In this document: piece after piece, positions 1 to 11,799 of the stretch
Layout of the letters: each line of letters starts with the position of its first letter
Position numbering within the stretch: position 1 is the first letter of the stretch
IMG/VR virus record: IMGVR_UViG_2778261689_000009
Span: 1 to 11,799 of that record
Source of the DNA: a virus
Lineage: Duplodnaviria > Heunggongvirae > Uroviricota > Caudoviricetes
Length of the DNA: 11,799 bases
Direction: 5' to 3' (one strand)
Made by a program: the position numbers and the translations under genes
The notes under the pieces: model-generated
Database searches by the model: none
The model's input: the letters and a program-made list of their open reading frames with translations, nothing else
What the model was told of the DNA's origin: nothing

Positions 1-432
1 CATTTGATCATATGACAAGATGTGTATCCACCTTAACTTAATGATTTTTACCAAAATCATTAGGGGATTCATCAGCACCAAGCCTATTCTGATAATATCC
101 TTATTGAGTTCTTTATGGATATCAACCACACTATCGAAAACTTCTTGAAACAAATGTAAGTCTACCTCTTGCTCAGAATCCATACGTTCAAAAAACAAAT
201 CACATCTCTGCAGTGAGCATTGAACTCTAAATTTATTATCTATAGAAAACAATTGGAGACGAGGAATCTCTGGTGGGGTATCCATAGGTAAAACGCCCAA
301 CATCATATTGTTTGTTAATTCAATACCTGCCTTCTTTTTAAAAGTTTGCCTAATAAAATACGACATTCCATCGAAATCGACAGTCGTTGATGAATCGTAA
401 AAAAATACCATTTGTAACTGTATGATTTTCAT
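1..432 (-). CDS. Hypothetical protein, AT-rich accessory gene, C-terminally truncated by the window edge (at least 144 aa)
   Basis: Not in the ORF track because it has no in-window stop. Reverse-complement ATG at 430-432 opens a frame that runs uninterrupted to position 1 (MKIIQLQMVFFYDSSTTVDFDGMSYF...). The region is visibly AT-rich compared with neighbouring P. It lies downstream of P, where lambda has ren. No recognisable family. Confidence 0.45.
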   Translation of the reverse strand, partial: MKIIQLQMVFFYDSSTTVDFDGMSYFIRQTFKKKAGIELTNNMMLGVLPMDTPPEIPRLQLFSIDNKFRVQCSLQRCDLFFERMDSEQEVDLHLFQEVFDSVVDIHKELNKDIIRIGLVLMNPLMILVKIIKLRWIHILSYDQM

Positions 433-584
433 CCTATATTCCAGGTTTCAGCAATTTAAATTTGGCGCATTATTCTAGCTTACAACAGCAACATTTTTGA
501 AGGGCTTTGCTAAAACTTTTATTCTCAGTGGCATTAATTTCAACCAATAGGACCTGAACAGAAAAAAACATAAAAATCAATGCA

Positions 585-1307
585 TTATTTCGAAATCTTT
601 TTATATAATGCTTTTCCCCCTTTCAGCCCAAACTTAGCTTTGATTTCTGCGATCTTCGCCAGAGCCTGTGCACGATTTAGAGGTCTACCGCCCATGACAG
701 GAAGCTGTTTTACTGGTTCAGGTATCGCCTCACCACGGTTAATTCGCGCGGTCATACAGGACAGTTCATCGGCAGCCTTGCGCCGTAATTCCGCATCAGT
801 AAGCGCATTGGCCCGCATGTTCTGGTACAGGTTGGTAACCAGCCAGTAGTGCGCGTTTGATTTCCATGGATAAGACTCTGCGTCCGGATACAGGCCACGC
901 TTCCGGCAATACTCGTAAACCATATCAACCAGCTCGCTGGCGTTTGGCAGCCCGGCGGTAACGGATGCTTCTTCCCGGCACCAGGCAACAAACTGCCCGG
1001 GTGATGGCAGGAATGGTCGATTCTGCCGACGGGCTACGCGCATTCCTGCGTTAACCTGTTCCATCGTGGTGATCCCGTTTTCCCGGAAAGCCAGAACCCA
1101 CTGGCGGCGGATTTCGTTCAGTTCGTTCTGGTCCCGGTTAGCCAGGCTCGCCGGGAAAGTTGCCAGTAACTGGCTGAACACACCATTGATGATCTGCGCT
1201 ACCTGTTGTACCTGCGGCTTTTCGTCGTACTGTTCCGGCATGTTGTTGGCGATCCGGCGCATCTGCTCACGGTCAAAGTTAACCATCTGTGCGGCGATGT
1301 TTTTCAT
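585..1307 (-). CDS. P: Replication protein P (DnaB helicase loader), lambda P-like
   Basis: 240-aa translation MKNIAAQMVNFDREQMRRIANNMPEQYDEKPQVQQ... matches lambda P over almost the whole length as I recall it; the last ~10 residues differ. Start overlaps the O stop in an ATGA (rev-comp of 1304-1307). Confidence 0.9.
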   Translation of the reverse strand: MKNIAAQMVNFDREQMRRIANNMPEQYDEKPQVQQVAQIINGVFSQLLATFPASLANRDQNELNEIRRQWVLAFRENGITTMEQVNAGMRVARRQNRPFLPSPGQFVAWCREEASVTAGLPNASELVDMVYEYCRKRGLYPDAESYPWKSNAHYWLVTNLYQNMRANALTDAELRRKAADELSCMTARINRGEAIPEPVKQLPVMGGRPLNRAQALAKIAEIKAKFGLKGGKALYKKISK

Positions 1308-2319: not shown

Positions 2320-2865
2320 TCATATTGCCCCCAGCATGGTGGTAACCATCGCCATCAATGGACCAGCCAGATCAGGATCCACACGAAACATCGACACAAT
2401 GCCTTCACTCATCTCCTTCAGTTTCTGGTGGCGTGGTGCGTTGAGAATGACCGCCTGTTTTGCCTCGCTGAGCTCCTTTTCCATTTCAGCCAGTCGAGCC
2501 ATGAAGCTATCCTGCTCAACCAGGTGGCCGCGATATTTCAGCGGTAGTACTGCCAGAATTGCTGGAGTCAGTTCACGCACGTTATTTCGGTATTTTTCAG
2601 AATCGAATTTGTTATCGAGAAAGCGGAACAGCTTCTGGCGTGCACGACTGACATCATCAGGAAAATCGATAGTGCCGCCGCCCTGTGCTCGATACTCATT
2701 CACAATGAGTGCGGCAACAACATCCTGATTATCTGCAGCCGACCAGGCGCGGACGGCATCACGGATTTTTTCGTGGCCTGGAGCTTGTTTTGTTTGAGAA
2801 CGATTTATCACCGCAGTCGGGCTAAATCCGCTAGTCTGTTGGTATGTAAGTGGTTGCATAGTCAT
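2320..2865 (-). CDS. YdaT-like protein (Rac-prophage type) occupying the cII position
   Basis: 181-aa ORF between the Cro-like gene and O, same strand. From memory it shares short motifs with E. coli Rac YdaT (EYRAQGGG, LTPAILAVLP); unverified. Its stop overlaps an ATG at 2323 (ATGA). Confidence 0.55.
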   Translation of the reverse strand: MTMQPLTYQQTSGFSPTAVINRSQTKQAPGHEKIRDAVRAWSAADNQDVVAALIVNEYRAQGGGTIDFPDDVSRARQKLFRFLDNKFDSEKYRNNVRELTPAILAVLPLKYRGHLVEQDSFMARLAEMEKELSEAKQAVILNAPRHQKLKEMSEGIVSMFRVDPDLAGPLMAMVTTMLGAI

Positions 2866-2889
2866 TGCCTTATCAGTTAACGCCGCAGT

Positions 2890-3117
2890 TTAGGCGGCAG
2901 AATTACTCGCGTTAAACAATGGTGCGAGGTCGGGACGAATATCTGCTGGTTTAATCTTTCCACCAGTGGCTGAGACAATTTTCATTACATAGCGGGCATC
3001 AATTCCGCCACCGTGTAGCCAACGCCAAACAGTGGGTTGGGCTACACCGCATAGATCTGCCAGTCGTTTTTGACTACCTGTAATACTGATTGCGAGTTGA
3101 ATGGTTTGATTTGTCAT
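2890..3117 (-). CDS. Cro-like helix-turn-helix regulator (YdaS/Cro family)
   Basis: Small HTH protein (MTNQTIQLAISITGSQKRLADLCGVAQPTVWRWLHGG...) divergent from the CI-like repressor. The track uses a TTG at 3123; the ATG at 3117-3115 with an upstream AGGA is preferred. Confidence 0.75.
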   Translation of the reverse strand: MTNQTIQLAISITGSQKRLADLCGVAQPTVWRWLHGGGIDARYVMKIVSATGGKIKPADIRPDLAPLFNASNSAA

Positions 3118-3123
3118 TATCAA

Positions 3124-3227
3124 TTCCTATTGGTATTGCAATGAACAAATAATAGCAATGCGTATTAACCATAGCAATAGCAAAACGTGTTTTGACCATC
3201 GATACGCAAGCGTATAAATTAAAACTT
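3124..3227. promoter_or_regulatory. oR-like immunity control region with divergent promoters: pR-like (minus; -35 TTGCTA rev-comp of 3172-3177, 17-bp spacer, -10 TATTAT rev-comp of 3149-3154) and pRM-like (plus; -35 TTGACC 3192-3197, -10 ATAAAT 3214-3219)
   Basis: Hexamers and spacers read directly from the sequence. Repeated ATAGCAAT motifs (3152-3159, 3171-3178), palindromic ATTGCAAT (3135-3142) and near-palindrome CAATGCGTATTA (3156-3167) are candidate operators; the same motifs recur at 4926-5000. Confidence 0.5.
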
Positions 3228-3920
3228 ATGAAAAAAGAAACTCTTGCTGATCGCTTAAACCTAGCGATGGAACAATCTGGAATGTCTCAAGGCGCTCTTG
3301 CAAAGGCGTCTGGTGTAGCTCAACCCACAATCTGGAGACTGACAAGCGGCAATGCACGCGGATCTACAAGAATTGTCGAAATCGCTAATGCACTTGGGGT
3401 TCGCACTGAATGGCTTTCCTCAGGCATAGGCCCTATGAGGGATAATGGCGTTCAGCCAGGAAAACCGGCGACCTGCTCTTCCAAATACTTCAAGATTGAC
3501 GTTCTTGATATGGAAGTAAGTGCAGGGCCAGGCGTCATTAACCGTGAGTTCGTTGAAGTTTTGCGATCGGTTGAGTACTCCCATGATGATGCGCGTCACA
3601 TGTTTGATGGCCGCAAAGCAGAAAACATCCGCATCATTAACGTGCGTGGCGACAGCATGTCAGGAACGATCGAACCAGGTGACCTGCTGTTCGTCGATAT
3701 CAGCGTCAAATCGTTCGACGGCGATGGGATTTATGCGTTCCTCTACGACGAAACCGCTCATGTAAAACGTCTGCAAATGATGAAGGATAAGCTGCTGGTT
3801 ATCTCTGATAACAAGAGCTACTCACCGTGGGACCCGATCGAGAAAGACGAGATGAACCGAGTGTTCATCTTCGGGAAAGTCATCGGGAGCATGCCGCAGA
3901 CGTACAGGAAGCATGGATAA
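3228..3920 (+). CDS. CI-like prophage repressor: N-terminal HTH plus C-terminal LexA/S24 autopeptidase domain
   Basis: HTH segment MSQGALAKASGVAQPTIWRL; candidate Ala-Gly cleavage site in EVSAGPGV; S24 catalytic motifs VRGDSMSGTIEPGDLLFVD and HVKRL. Start taken as ATG 3228 (the track's 3192 is a TTG), which lies ~8 nt after the putative -10. Confidence 0.9.
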   Translation: MKKETLADRLNLAMEQSGMSQGALAKASGVAQPTIWRLTSGNARGSTRIVEIANALGVRTEWLSSGIGPMRDNGVQPGKPATCSSKYFKIDVLDMEVSAGPGVINREFVEVLRSVEYSHDDARHMFDGRKAENIRIINVRGDSMSGTIEPGDLLFVDISVKSFDGDGIYAFLYDETAHVKRLQMMKDKLLVISDNKSYSPWDPIEKDEMNRVFIFGKVIGSMPQTYRKHG

Positions 3921-3995: not shown

Positions 3996-4394
3996 ATGAG
4001 TAATGATGACAAATCTGTAAGTGATGAAGTATCTGATTTTCATAATAAAGTGAAAAATATTACAACCGCTCAATTTTCTGCATATTTAAAGCATGTTGGG
4101 GCAAATCATAACTGCTTATCTTGCGGTAAGGCTGAACTTATAGCAGTGCAAGACTGGCATTGGGATAAATTCAACAGCAAGGAAGGGAAAACAGATCTTA
4201 ATAATATTGAAAAATATACTGTTTTAAGGCTTTACAAGGTTGATGCTCCACATAGTAATGAGCAATGGAATATGACAAAAGAAAACCTAATGGATTATGA
4301 GTTTAGAGTGATATGCAAACATTGCGGATTCGTTACAAGTTATTTGGCATGGCTTGTTTTCTACTGGCTAAAGAATAACGAAGTTGACCAATAA
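3996..4394 (+). CDS. Hypothetical protein with two CxxCG knuckles (possible zinc ribbon); first gene of the immunity-region cassette
   Basis: 132-aa ORF with Cys40/Cys43 (CLSCG) and Cys107/Cys110 (CKHCG), an acidic N-terminus and an aromatic-rich C-terminus (YLAWLVFYWL). Clearly AT-rich relative to the flanking repressor and Red genes. Weak AAGG upstream. No recognisable family. Confidence 0.6.
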   Translation: MSNDDKSVSDEVSDFHNKVKNITTAQFSAYLKHVGANHNCLSCGKAELIAVQDWHWDKFNSKEGKTDLNNIEKYTVLRLYKVDAPHSNEQWNMTKENLMDYEFRVICKHCGFVTSYLAWLVFYWLKNNEVDQ

Positions 4395-4414
4395 TGACAT
4401 CCGGGCCAGAATAA

Positions 4415-4807
4415 ATGAATCCTTTTGATAATATTGCTCCTCTTTTCCCTGAGGGGGATGATAGAAATAACCATAAAAACGGTGGTAGTGATGGTGGGGG
4501 GAATGGCATGCTCGAGGTCAGAGTTGCAAAACTTGAAGCCGACGTTGAAAACATCAAGATAAACTTAGCGGAAACTCGCGCGGATGTGAGAGAGCTGACA
4601 AAAATTACCTCTTCTATAAAAACTGATGTTTCTACGATACTTCAAAAACTTGTAGATATTGACGAAAAGTTATCTCATAAAGCAAGTAAGGATTTTGTCG
4701 AAGTAAAAACAGGTAATTTAAAGGCTTGGATGCTCGGAATTCTTCTCTTATCCGTTGCAATGCCAGTCATAACTTTGCTCGTAAATTTATACATGAAAAA
4801 AACATAA
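4415..4807 (+). CDS. Hypothetical coiled-coil protein with a single C-terminal transmembrane helix (tail-anchored; XhlA-like architecture)
   Basis: Gly-rich N-terminus (GGSDGGGNG), heptad-like central region (LEVRVAKLEADVENIKINLAETRADVRELTKI...) and hydrophobic C-terminus AWMLGILLLSVAMPVITLLVNLYMKKT. An internal ATG at 4508 preceded by a GGGGGGAA run is an alternative start (99 aa). Confidence 0.6.
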   Translation: MNPFDNIAPLFPEGDDRNNHKNGGSDGGGNGMLEVRVAKLEADVENIKINLAETRADVRELTKITSSIKTDVSTILQKLVDIDEKLSHKASKDFVEVKTGNLKAWMLGILLLSVAMPVITLLVNLYMKKT

Positions 4808-4832
4808 CCCGGCCACCGCGCCGGGTTTTCTT
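4808..4832 (+). terminator. Rho-independent terminator closing the cassette
   Basis: GC stem CCCGGC (4808-4813) / GCCGGG (4820-4825) with a 6-nt loop, then TTTTCTT, immediately after the stop at 4805-4807. An A-run at 4793-4799 could allow bidirectional function. Confidence 0.65.
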
Positions 4833-4925
4833 CCCCCCTTCCCCAACACACTCAACGTCTAAAAAACAACCACAATCTCACTTCAGCTATCGCTACGCGA
4901 TGCAAACCACAAAATAAATTCTTTT

Positions 4926-5003
4926 TGCTATCAATGATTTAATAACCAATCGCATCAAGCAATAACAATACGTATTGATATAGCCAATAGCAATAGCTAT
5001 TAT
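4926..5003 (+). promoter_or_regulatory. oL/pL-like region: candidate pL (-35 TTGATA 4975-4980, 17-bp spacer, -10 TATTAT 4998-5003) overlapped by operator-like repeats
   Basis: Perfect 12-bp palindrome CAATACGTATTG (4966-4977), ATAGCAAT (4987-4994) and TTGCTAT (4926-4932) match the motifs at 3135-3178. The promoter faces the gam-bet-exo-xis-int genes. Confidence 0.5.
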
Positions 5004-7335: not shown

Positions 7336-7490
7336 AGCATCCTCACGATAATATCCGGGTAGGCACGATCACTTTCGTCTACTCCGTTACAAAGCGAGGC
7401 TGGATATTTCCCGGCCTTTCTGTTATCCGAAATCCCCTGAAAGCACAGCGGCTGGCTGAGGAGATAAATAATAAACGGGGGGCTGTATGA
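7332..7490 (+). CDS. Hypothetical small protein (52 aa), translationally coupled between exo and the methyltransferase
   Basis: ATG 7332 overlaps the exo stop (ATGA) and its own stop overlaps the methyltransferase ATG (ATGA at 7487-7490); [52 protein letters not shown]. Below the ORF-track cutoff; coding status rests only on the coupling geometry. Confidence 0.3.
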
Positions 7491-8044
7491 CTGATTTCAC
7501 CGGAAGCAATACTCCTGCCGAACATCGCGACAGCTGGCGCACACCACCAGAGATTTTTGCTGCGCTTAATGCAGAGTTCGTTTTTCAACTTGATGCTGCC
7601 GCCAGCGAAAAAAACCGACTATGTCGGCTTTTTATCTCACAGGAGCAGAACACATTAACCACTTCATGGCCTGAAGCAATGGGATATGCCTCTGGTTATG
7701 TCTGGTTGAATCCACCATACAGCAATATTTCCCCTTTTGTGAAAAAGGCAGCCACTGAAAACAAATTCAGTAGTGTGGGATGTGTAATGTTATTGCCTGC
7801 TGACACATCTGTCGGATGGTTTCATGAAGCGATACAAACCGCCAGTGAGGTCAGATTCATCACGGCAGGACGACTGGCATTTATTAACCCGCTCACTGAG
7901 AAACCCGTCAGTGGAAATAATAAAGGCTCGATGCTCATTATCTGGCACCCATACCCCCGTACACACTGCCACTTTACGACCGTTGATCGTGGAGAGTTGA
8001 TGGCGTTCGGCTCAAGGATTCTTGCCCGTCGGGAGGCTGCATGA
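7487..8044 (+). CDS. Phage orphan DNA N6-adenine methyltransferase (Dam-like)
   Basis: 185-aa ORF with the amino-methyltransferase catalytic tetrapeptide NPPY (YVWLNPPYSNISPF). No adjacent restriction endonuclease candidate. Size and position resemble orphan methyltransferases in other enterobacterial prophages. Confidence 0.8.
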   Translation: MTDFTGSNTPAEHRDSWRTPPEIFAALNAEFVFQLDAAASEKNRLCRLFISQEQNTLTTSWPEAMGYASGYVWLNPPYSNISPFVKKAATENKFSSVGCVMLLPADTSVGWFHEAIQTASEVRFITAGRLAFINPLTEKPVSGNNKGSMLIIWHPYPRTHCHFTTVDRGELMAFGSRILARREAA

Positions 8045-10355: not shown

Positions 10356-10431
10356 TGGTGCCGATAATAGGAGTCGAACCTACGACCTTCGCATTACGAA
10401 TGCGCTGCTCTACCAACTGAGCTATATCGGC
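10356..10431 (-). tRNA. thrW: tRNA-Thr (anticodon CGU), thrW, including 3' CCA; phage attachment target
   Basis: Reverse complement reads GCCGATATAGCTCAGTTGGTAGAGCAGCGCATTCGTAATGCGAAGGTCGTAGGTTCGACTCCTATTATCGGCACCA, a 76-nt cloverleaf-compatible tRNA with anticodon loop TTCGTAA. The 3' end faces the integrase. Confidence 0.92.
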
Positions 10432-10545: not shown

Positions 10546-11799
10546 TTACGCACGAATGGTGTAATCACCAATGCCGATCCACTTGTAAGTGGTCAGTGCT
10601 TCCAGCCCCATTGGGCCACGCGCGTGGAGTTTTTGTGTGCTTACCGCCACTTCCGCACCCAGACCAAACTGGCCGCCGTCGGTAAAACGCGTAGAGGCGT
10701 TAACGTAAACAGCGGACGAATCCACTTCGTTAACAAAACGCTGGGCGTTGCGCATATCGCGGGTCAGGATCGCATCGGAGTGTTGTGTGCCGTGTTCACG
10801 AATATGGGCGATGGCATCGTCAAGATCGCTGACGATTTTGACGTTCAAATCTAATGACAGAAACTCATCGTCATACTCTTCGGCTTTAACAGCAACCACC
10901 TTCGCAGGGCCTGCCTGCAACTGCGCCAGTGCAGCTGCATCTGCGTGTAATGTCACGCCGCTTTCCGCCATTTGTTTGCTTAATGCGGGCAGGAAGCTAT
11001 CGGCGATGTTTTTATTCACCAGCAACGTTTCAACCGTATTACATGTGCTCGGACGCTGAGTTTTCGCGTTGACGATCACTTTTAATGCTTCAGCGATCTC
11101 TACACTTTCATCAACGTAAATATGGCATACGCCTATACCACCTGTGATCACCGGGATTGTCGACTGTTCACGGCACAGTTTATGCAAACCAGCGCCACCA
11201 CGCGGGATCAGCATGTCGATGTATTTATCCATACGCAGCATTTCACTGACCAGCGCACGGTCAGGATTATCAATCGCCTGCACGGCACCCGCCGGTAAGC
11301 CGCAGGATTTCAGGGCGTCCTGAATCACCGCCACCGTTGCAGCGTTAGTGCGACACGTTTCTTTGCCACCGCGCAGGATCACCGCATTACCGGTTTTCAG
11401 GCACAGCGAAGCGACATCAACCGTCACGTTCGGGCGCGCTTCATAAATCACGCCAATAACCCCCAGCGGTACGCGACGACGCTCAAGACGCAGGCCGCTG
11501 TCCAGTACGCCGCCATCGATTACCTGCCCCACCGGATCGGCGAGGTTGCACACCTGACGTACATCGTCGGCAATGCCTTTCAGCCGTGCGGGCGTCAGTG
11601 CCAGACGGTCAAGCATCGCTTCGCTAAGGCCATTGGCTCGCGCGTCAGCAACATCCTGGGCGTTAGCGTTGAGGATGATTTCGCTTTGTGCTTCCAGTTC
11701 ATCGGCGATTTTTTCCAGCACGCGATTTTTTTCGCGGCTGGAGAGTTGCGCTAATTTATACGAGGCTTGCTTCGCGGCAATGCCCATTTGTTCCAGCAT
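10546..11799 (-). CDS. proA: Gamma-glutamyl phosphate reductase (host core gene)
   Basis: 417-aa translation [75 protein letters not shown]... matches enterobacterial ProA; the start codon sits exactly at the window end. Confidence 0.95.

Follow-up and report, generated by a model that had tools for sequence, protein, structure and literature searches.

In phage lambda, the repressor gene is followed by rexA and rexB in the cI-rexA-rexB operon, in which the internal promoter pLIT serves rexB, and RexB is a polytopic membrane protein. The cI-N interval is a mosaic accessory hotspot with the abortive-infection systems rexAB and bstA (PMC8585504, PMC7067206). The mechanism of rexAB is still described as poorly understood, and an excess of RexB suppresses Rex exclusion; BstA is a single protein found at phage DNA replication sites, with a self-immunity DNA element, aba (PMC8585504). 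In P22, sieA, orf59a and mnt are grouped together, and SieA keeps DNA from being transported through the inner membrane (PMC10883804). Here, we analysed a two-gene cassette, g1 and g2 (positions 3996-4807, plus strand), from the virus record IMGVR_UViG_2778261689_000009 (Caudoviricetes), whose first 11,799 nucleotides (nt) are the stretch referred to below as the window. The original prediction, which was made from the letters of the window, took the cassette for a candidate phage-exclusion system that is expressed in the lysogen. The cassette occupies the slot of rexAB and belongs to a family in which unrelated upstream partners and unrelated membrane segments are combined with one constant hub in g2; what is new here is a predicted short isoform of g2 from an internal start. 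Phage exclusion at the inner membrane is the reading that we prefer, though tentatively.

Results

Two genes in the slot of rexAB

Two co-oriented open reading frames (ORFs) that are richer in AT than their neighbours had been reported for this locus, and both points held. The genes g1 (3996-4394) and g2 (4415-4807) lie on the plus strand, encode 132 and 130 amino acids (aa), respectively, and have a guanine-plus-cytosine (GC) content of 0.338 and 0.377, as against values around 0.50 in their surroundings (0.494 in cI, 0.522 in kil-gam-bet-exo and 0.504 on the O-P-cII side). Both are real genes and not chance ORFs because both have homologues and because the proportion of nonsynonymous differences (pN) was below that of synonymous differences (pS) in every related pair that was tested. 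The variant of the window is patchy, being present in 10 of 5426 complete E. coli genomes, which together with the low GC content points to horizontal acquisition of the cassette.

The gene directly upstream (3228-3920, plus strand) encodes a CI-type repressor with the Pfam domains PF00717 (Peptidase_S24, E 1e-17) and PF01381 (HTH_3, E 1e-6). On the other side lies an OL/pL-like region (4958-5003, plus strand), in which palindromes at 4963-4980 and 4986-5001 overlap the promoter-like TTGATA-17-TATTAT at 4975-5003, with kil, gam, bet and exo downstream. The cro/cI intergenic region (3118-3192) holds operator-like sites at 3151 (AATAGCAATGCGTATTA) and 3172 (TAGCAATAGCAAAACGT) as well as divergent promoter-like sites, for which the promoter scan gave matches at 3192-3220 on the plus strand and 3177-3149 on the minus strand. 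The palindromic sites at 4961 and 4986 are identical to those at 3151 and 3172 in 14 of 17 bases. Because the upstream gene is a repressor with helix-turn-helix (HTH) and S24 domains and the downstream palindromes match the cro/cI sites, the cassette lies inside the immunity region, between a CI-like repressor and a pL-like promoter as had been proposed.

Within the 75 bp that separate cI from g1, the scan called no terminator on the plus strand. The closest promoter-like site on that strand (4384-4412) is within g1 and precedes g2 only. Co-transcription of cI, g1 and g2 is therefore plausible, and the repressor transcript is the probable source of the cassette transcript. An intrinsic terminator, previously placed at 4808-4832 and essentially right, closes the unit (4806-4834, plus strand). 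It consists of an 8-bp G+C-rich hairpin at 4806-4827 (-14.5 kcal/mol, z = -3.67; 0 of 200 shuffles folded as well) followed by UUUCUUCC, and the scanner called the same hairpin a terminator on the minus strand too, with a T7 tail. We take this terminator 3' of g2 to be the analogue of the lambda immunity-region terminator.

As to the start of cI, the PGAP annotation has the equivalent of 3228, and the mechanical ORF list has a TTG at 3192 instead. A -10-like TAAATT is located at 3215-3220, about 8 nt before the ATG at 3228 (within 3192-3230). The gene probably starts at ATG 3228, and this arrangement suggests a nearly leaderless pRM-type transcript as in lambda.

Architecture of the two proteins

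The long form of g2 (4415-4807, plus strand; 130 aa) is composed of an N-terminal peptide (N-peptide, residues 1-21), a glycine-rich run (22-31), a helix (32-104) and a C-terminal membrane segment. It falls into phrog_3556 (function not known; E 6e-38) and has 87 homologous clusters across Enterobacterales. In the AlphaFold2 (AF2) model, which had a mean predicted local distance difference test score of 72.9, residues 1-29 are disordered and residues 30-128 form one continuous helix. The single hydrophobic segment of the protein is at its C-terminus, where the transmembrane (TM) segment WMLGILLLSVAMPVITLLVNLYM (4727-4795, plus strand), helical in the model, is followed by KKT in the manner of a tail anchor; the most hydrophobic 19-mer comprises residues 105-123 (Kyte-Doolittle 2.40). 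The coiled coil with one C-terminal TM helix that had been read from the translation was thus confirmed, while the disordered N-peptide, the glycine run and the internal Shine-Dalgarno (SD) sequence with its ATG (4493-4510) had been missed. Because of the tail-anchored layout, that is, about 100 soluble residues without a signal peptide, one C-terminal TM and a two-lysine tail, the coil and the N-peptide are most likely cytoplasmic, a topology that we draw from established tail-anchor biology.

The product of g1 (3996-4394, plus strand) is a 132-aa cytoplasmic 4-Cys protein of the zinc-ribbon type, the variable partner subunit of the pair, and falls into phrog_4293 (function not known). As originally described, it has two CxxCG knuckles, CLSCG at residue 40 (C40-L-S-C43-G44; 4113-4127, plus strand) and CKHCG at residue 107 (C107-K-H-C110-G111; 4314-4328, plus strand), and 63 residues separate C43 from C107. 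When 24 members with 14-67% identity were aligned, only the four Cys were invariant besides the start Met, and the glycine after the first knuckle was nearly so. Such a pattern is characteristic of a structural metal site with four Cys, and zinc is the probable metal. The 4-Cys protein is rare, as a full HMMER scan of 1.84 billion representatives gave only 16 matches at E <= 0.001. The order of a soluble protein first and a membrane protein second was confirmed for the pair.

The N-peptide and a predicted short isoform of g2

Among the approximately 100 related loci that were gathered, 57 unique gene pairs were extracted. In all 57, the frame of g2 runs without a stop codon (26-55 codons) from where g1 ends to the hub, i.e., the glycine run with the conserved helix that follows it. 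In the N-peptide, all 11 related pairs had a pN lower than pS, with a ratio of nonsynonymous to synonymous rates (dN/dS) of 0.12-0.61, which is comparable with that of g1. These two observations ruled out the possibility that the N-terminal extension is an untranslated leader. The similarity of N-peptides tracks that of the g1 proteins (Mantel rho 0.17, p 0.0015) and not that of the coil and TM (rho 0.006, p 0.46), with which g1 is uncorrelated as well. This may reflect docking of g1 on the N-peptide; simple linkage fits equally. The stronger proposal that each g1 family has an N-peptide motif of its own was rejected, as several loci of the phrog_5893 type carry 'NNVF.LP'-type peptides like those of the zinc family.

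Within g2, the glycine run encodes an SD-like sequence, GGTGGGGGG (4493-4501, plus strand), 6 nt before an in-frame ATG at 4508, from which a putative short form of 99 aa (4508-4807, plus strand) would comprise the invariant MLEVRVAKLEADVENIK helix, the coil and the membrane segment. Of 37 distinct upstream sequences, 36 have ATG as the codon that directly follows the glycine run, and the remaining one has TTG. As judged from the 3-4 spacing of hydrophobic residues, this Met appears to occupy a non-core heptad position. The codon at -4 relative to the internal ATG is GGA in 26/37 and GGG in 8/37, compared with a share of GGA of 24% among the other Gly codons of these genes (p = 4e-9); elsewhere in the run, the glycine codons show no such excess of GGA. 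As a result, GGAGG stands 7 nt before the internal ATG in 26 of the 37 sequences. Selection for an SD site produces a position-specific synonymous bias of this kind, and the invariant in-frame ATG after a codon-selected GGAGG thus implies a second, short isoform of g2. The 99-aa product is also called by some annotations (P0009; P0146/WP_023307712.1). We consider the internal start of g2 to be well supported by these sequence comparisons.

A promoter may accompany it in many relatives. Of 33 non-redundant loci, 12, which represent about seven lineages, have a promoter-like TTGAAx/TGGACA-17-CATA(C/A)T that ends 25-45 nt before the internal ATG. The shuffles gave 0.86 expected (maximum of 5 in 1000) and the control windows 1 and 0, and the counts are inflated by shared ancestry. 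The CATACT hexamer encodes His-Thr in some lineages and spans Ala-Tyr-Ser in others, and these differing codon contexts argue for a signal at the DNA level. In the window itself, the promoter-like site at 4384-4412 (TTGACC-17-CAGAAT, plus strand), in the 3' end of g1, is weak, with a consensus match of only 9/12, and is not conserved in relatives; a transcript from it would lack the ATG of the long form. An internal promoter for g2 is best regarded as a lead at the level of the family.

A modular family downstream of phage repressors

Relatives of g2 were found in phage HK544, VT1-Sakai (ECs2991/ECs2992), the P22-like UPF_BP1, phages of the S107 type and epsilon34/g341c. The family thereby has a member in the Stx1 phage Sp15/VT1-Sakai of E. 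coli O157:H7 Sakai, and entries from EDL933 occur in the clusters of this protein variant. The two commonest cassette variants of E. coli occur in approximately 560 and at least 1000 contigs. Species-representative genomes gave only nine loci, the viral collection being far richer. The annotated copies of the window proteins are named 'hypothetical protein', as are most members of the family.

In blastp clusters of the 57 unique pairs, the upstream partner belongs to at least three unrelated families: the 4-Cys proteins of phrog_4293 (17 unique sequences), non-zinc proteins of about 140-170 aa of phrog_5893 (36 unique sequences) and proteins of about 93 aa of phrog_12039/4231 (four unique sequences, plus HK544). 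The distal part of g2 is as changeable, with at least four unrelated C-terminal hydrophobic segments, a variable coil and a total length of 91-295 aa. The sole constant part is the hub, which consists of the glycine run and the M-LEARVAKLE(A/S)DVE(N/Y)IK that follows it. Even the hub can be left behind, as is evident from one locus (L005) whose g1 is 67-68% identical to that of the window and whose g2 starts with the same NPFDNI(A/T)PLFP peptide and continues with a different coil and membrane segment (phrog_6324). Conflict systems typically show such an exchange of sensors and effectors, here putative ones, about a hub that stays the same.

The genomic context was surveyed for co-occurrence with CI-like repressors, as the original prediction had suggested. 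Among the 30 distinct genes directly upstream and co-oriented, 21 have HTH_3, 13 Peptidase_S24 and three Arc/Mnt-type domains, and because of these domains at least 24 of the 30 are phage repressors of several unrelated kinds. A lambda-type CI repressor, the N-terminus of which we take to be that of lambda CI, precedes one variant that is common in E. coli. In UPF_BP1, a Salmonella phage, the pair is preceded by mnt and faced by gene 16, exactly the place that orf59a-sieA has in P22. The guess of exclusion is strengthened by these contexts, because the family lies downstream of many unrelated repressors and also in the orf59a/sieA slot.

The replacement of orf59a-sieA also favours a different kind of superinfection exclusion, a block of entry in which g2 would tether g1 under the inner membrane and g1 would intercept ejection or tape-measure proteins or the incoming DNA of related phages, much as SieA of P22 acts from inside the membrane. 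Exchangeable TM sequences and a stalk of variable length would suit an anchor and spacer, and a variable g1 would match variable phage entry proteins. However, no similarity to SieA was detected (hhalign probability 0.4%), a simple tether needs neither the invariant distal helix nor a second isoform, and most occurrences are in the cI slot, whose known characterised occupants, rexAB and bstA, act by abortive infection. We therefore regard an entry block as rather unlikely.

Two further loci widen the range of the family. In Salmonella phage S107 and its relatives (L004, 3053-3797), a 4-Cys g1 and g2 lie after two genes that the record annotates as Rha (Rha/KilA-N genes) and before the tail tape-measure region; the ORF upstream matches the ORF6N Pfam domain. 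As this pair is not beside a repressor, the cassette also occupies a slot outside of the immunity region. A distant cassette in a Cellvibrionaceae metagenome-assembled genome (L020, 985-4276), with a 4-Cys g1 and a 100-aa g2 that has the same hub, is located downstream of SNase and IrrE/ImmA-type Peptidase_M78 genes, and the family thus reaches beyond Enterobacterales.

Homology searches and a possible role in lysis

Neither protein scored above any curated threshold in Pfam or NCBIfam, and in PADLOC-DB v2.0.0 at E<=1 g1 had no match and g2 matched only PbeC (E 0.0026) over a coiled-coil stretch. Searches with six cassette variants against Pfam, NCBIfam, PADLOC and PHROGs returned only PHROGs of unknown function and coiled-coil noise (LmuB, JetC, CorA-like). 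The g1 protein matched no known family or fold in Pfam, NCBIfam, PADLOC or the PDB sequence profiles, and in the latter nothing was below E 0.1 for either the g1 or the g2 family. These results and those of hhalign bear out the statement that neither protein is recognisable as a known defence or lysis family, and the searches revealed no confident homology to a characterised non-defence function. No functional study of any member was found in the literature, including that on HK544 and ECs2991/ECs2992, although an earlier description is still possible, and the accession numbers that were tried are absent from the DefensePredictor supplements.

The XhlA-like shape that had been attributed to g2 stood as a likeness of architecture, but it was not matched by homology. 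The g2 of the window had no match to XhlA (PF10779) at E<=1, that of one relative (L084) scored 19.3 bits (E 0.0013), which is below the gathering score of 34.7 bits, and the alignment of the family profile with SPP1 gp24.1 had an hhalign probability of 5%. SPP1 gp24.1 is an XhlA homologue with a C-terminal TM and a dual-start motif (PMC6316719), which g2 would share, and NCBI names a related g2 variant 'hemolysin XhlA'. On these grounds, the cassette could be an XhlA-type holin accessory and its partner, misplaced in the immunity region and used in the lytic cycle of the prophage itself. We consider this very improbable: the neighbours of the cassette are the repressor and, beyond pL, kil, gam, bet and exo, with no lysis cassette there or in relatives, and none of the loci that were read has the cassette beside an endolysin or a holin. 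Moreover, the cassette is co-oriented with repressors and lies upstream of, not under, the OL/pL-like promoter.

Prophage setting

A lambdoid E. coli prophage, of which the window represents one arm, is integrated at tRNA-Thr(CGT) (10356-10431), beside proA (10546-11799); this tRNA was the only match when the window was scanned with Rfam. The minus strand, followed leftward out of the immunity region, carries a cro of the YdaS type (2890-3123), a gene like YdaT/CII (2320-2865) and replication genes of the O and P types. The order on the plus strand is the HTH and Peptidase_S24 repressor (cI), g1, g2, kil, gam, bet, exo, a DNA methyltransferase, a DksA-like gene, xis and int, and no N gene is present in the immunity region of the window. 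The immunity region at 2320-3123 is of the YdaS (cro-like)/YdaT (CII-like) type, as in Rac and CP-933P, and is combined here with a lambda-type kil-gam-bet-exo. The RefSeq record NZ_AP023208.1 (L107), labelled as a 70-kb plasmid, contains the same prophage plus tRNA-Thr and proA and may be a chromosomal segment that was closed as a circle. The interval from exo to the DksA-like gene is another variable slot, filled by the DNA methyltransferase (phrog_111) in the window (7487-8044) and by a DGQHR-domain protein in the near-identical prophage of NZ_AP023208.1 (L107, 9588-10652). The left end of the window (1-600) is AT-rich (GC 0.31-0.35), and the sole ORF of at least 40 aa that is wholly inside it encodes 42 aa (20-148).

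Discussion

In this study, we attempted to explain a two-gene prophage cassette from its position, its architecture and its relatives. A role in exclusion is likely from position and architecture, which are the whole of what this reading draws on. More specifically, and with some reserve, we propose that the cassette is a phage-exclusion module, expressed in the lysogen on the repressor transcript, whose products would work at the inner membrane from its cytoplasmic side. The C-terminal segment of g2 would lie in the membrane and its helix would form a cytoplasmic coiled-coil stalk, from which a flexible glycine linker would carry the short N-peptide. The soluble 4-Cys zinc protein g1 would be an exchangeable specificity subunit, probably docked on the N-peptide of the long g2. 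A short g2, consisting of the coil and the membrane segment, would be made from the internal ribosome-binding site and ATG and in many relatives also from an internal promoter. When a component of a superinfecting phage engages g1, the g2 assembly would change its state and the membrane would be damaged or depolarised, with abortive infection as the outcome, analogous to that by RexA/RexB. The ratio of long to short g2 may set the threshold of this response and may spare the lytic growth of the prophage itself, i.e., provide self-immunity; this role is suggested because the same logic applies to excess RexB in lambda and, reportedly, to SieB and Esc in P22. 'Sensor' for g1 and 'membrane permeabilisation' for g2, terms that go back to the original prediction, are likewise roles that we infer. 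Its phage-exclusion reading was supported in part, by position, architecture and comparative genomics, whereas the modular family and the short isoform had escaped it.

Several points weigh against this proposal. The internal SD of the window itself is GGGGGG and not GGAGG, and at the position of the internal promoter of the family the window has only a weak CATAAA (4472-4477). The tie between the N-peptide and g1 may be mere linkage, caused by recombination in the conserved hub DNA. A single C-terminal helix whose sequence is exchanged freely could be a passive anchor just as well as an effector, and single-TM proteins of the XhlA type are harmless without a partner (two-TM) holin (PMC6316719), which the cassette does not have. 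PADLOC gave no homology for the cassette proteins beyond coiled-coil noise, and no phenotype, expression, localisation or interaction data were found for any member of the family. Finally, one copy in Photorhabdus caribbeanensis (L019, 3438-4774) is chromosomal and outside any obvious prophage. An ORF of about 1090 aa, the N-terminus of which resembles an HrpA-type helicase by eye, ends just upstream of it, Tlde1-domain and fimbrial genes lie downstream, and its g2 has 295 aa with about eight tandem coil repeats of ARLTKSENRFDSKLTEVE.KFD.

This chromosomal copy would also fit an accessory role outside of defence, such as a toxin-antitoxin-like pair with g2 as the membrane toxin and g1 as its neutraliser, or a modulator of the lysis-lysogeny switch or of host physiology. 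The gaps between g1 and g2 overlap or are tight in many loci (-41 to +20 nt), and a small soluble gene followed closely by a membrane gene resembles toxin-antitoxin operons. In addition, RexA and 434 Hex have switch-related roles (10.1101/2021.04.19.439022; PMC3564112). However, Pfam and NCBIfam detected no toxin, antitoxin or regulator domain in either protein, and three unrelated g1 families on one hub look like diversification of targets and not like a fixed neutraliser. Toxin-antitoxin behaviour and abortive infection are also not mutually exclusive. Overall, we find a non-defence role doubtful and prefer phage exclusion.

If exclusion is extended from the window to its relatives, the cassette may represent an undescribed defence family that is widespread in Enterobacterales prophages. 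It would be defined by a hub of the glycine linker and the LEARVAKLExDVExIK helix, with unrelated plug-in sensors on one side (the 4-Cys zinc protein, the protein of about 145 aa from the second family and the protein of about 93 aa), unrelated tail-anchor effectors on the other, and a self-regulating short isoform from an internal promoter and ribosome-binding site; the genes of the Stx1 phage of E. coli O157:H7 Sakai, HK544 and epsilon34 would be its members. Taken jointly, this is a possibility that we regard as less probable than exclusion by the cassette of the window. If true, the short isoform would be a built-in threshold or self-immunity device, and its prediction can be tested directly. 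A second, unrelated cassette of a soluble partner and a membrane protein in the rexAB slot would offer a simpler system, in which two proteins of about 130 aa each, a single TM and a well-marked hub make it easier to ask how a cytoplasmic signal reaches the membrane. The natural modularity provides ready-made swaps, as three families of partners and no fewer than four membrane segments are available. The family is present in medically relevant prophages, such as the Stx1 phage, and, if not defensive, it is still a conserved membrane module that is linked to lysogeny.

Comparison with known systems

With XhlA and gp24.1, g2 shares a short N-terminus, a helix and a single C-terminal TM; it differs by its glycine linker and N-peptide and by the partner gene dedicated to it upstream, with neither an XhlB-type partner nor a lysis cassette. 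P22 SieA and SieB, which are exclusion genes expressed in the lysogen, resemble the cassette in occupying a repressor-linked accessory slot, which in UPF_BP1 is that of SieA itself, but their membrane architecture is unlike that of g2, and SieB, like SieA, showed no homology (hhalign probability 0.2%). Ranade and Poteete reportedly found that sieB of P22 gives a full-length product and an in-frame shorter one, Esc, which counteracts SieB, and the putative long and short isoforms of g2 would follow the same logic. The S107 and S105 products of lambda S, a holin and antiholin pair, differ by 2 residues, whereas the two forms of g2 would differ by 31 residues that include a partner-linked peptide, and by its position the cassette is not a lysis gene. 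In that lambda gene, the products from two in-frame starts of one membrane protein have opposed or modulating roles (cited in PMC6316719). The dual-start feature of g2 is present as a sequence signal, an invariant ATG/TTG with a codon-selected GGAGG, which is GGGGGG in the window. BstA is comparable in being located downstream of a prophage repressor, the promoter of which it presumably shares, and in its patchy occurrence in Gram-negative prophages (PMC8585504); it has no membrane component, and PADLOC detected no similarity between it and the cassette.

The closest likeness in layout is to RexA/RexB of lambda, to which the cassette had been called analogous and not homologous. This description is upheld, as neither g1 nor g2 had a RexA or RexB match in Pfam or PADLOC (E<=1). 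RexB is polytopic whereas the one TM of g2 is C-terminal; at 132 aa, the zinc protein g1 is about half as large as RexA; and the partner and TM of the g1-g2 family, unlike RexAB, are modular and exchangeable. Yet the cassette lies in the same slot between cI and OL/pL, in the same orientation and with a terminator at its end, and encodes a soluble first and a membrane-bound second product. Its relatives add a family-level hint of an internal promoter for only (part of) the membrane protein, which would parallel pLIT.

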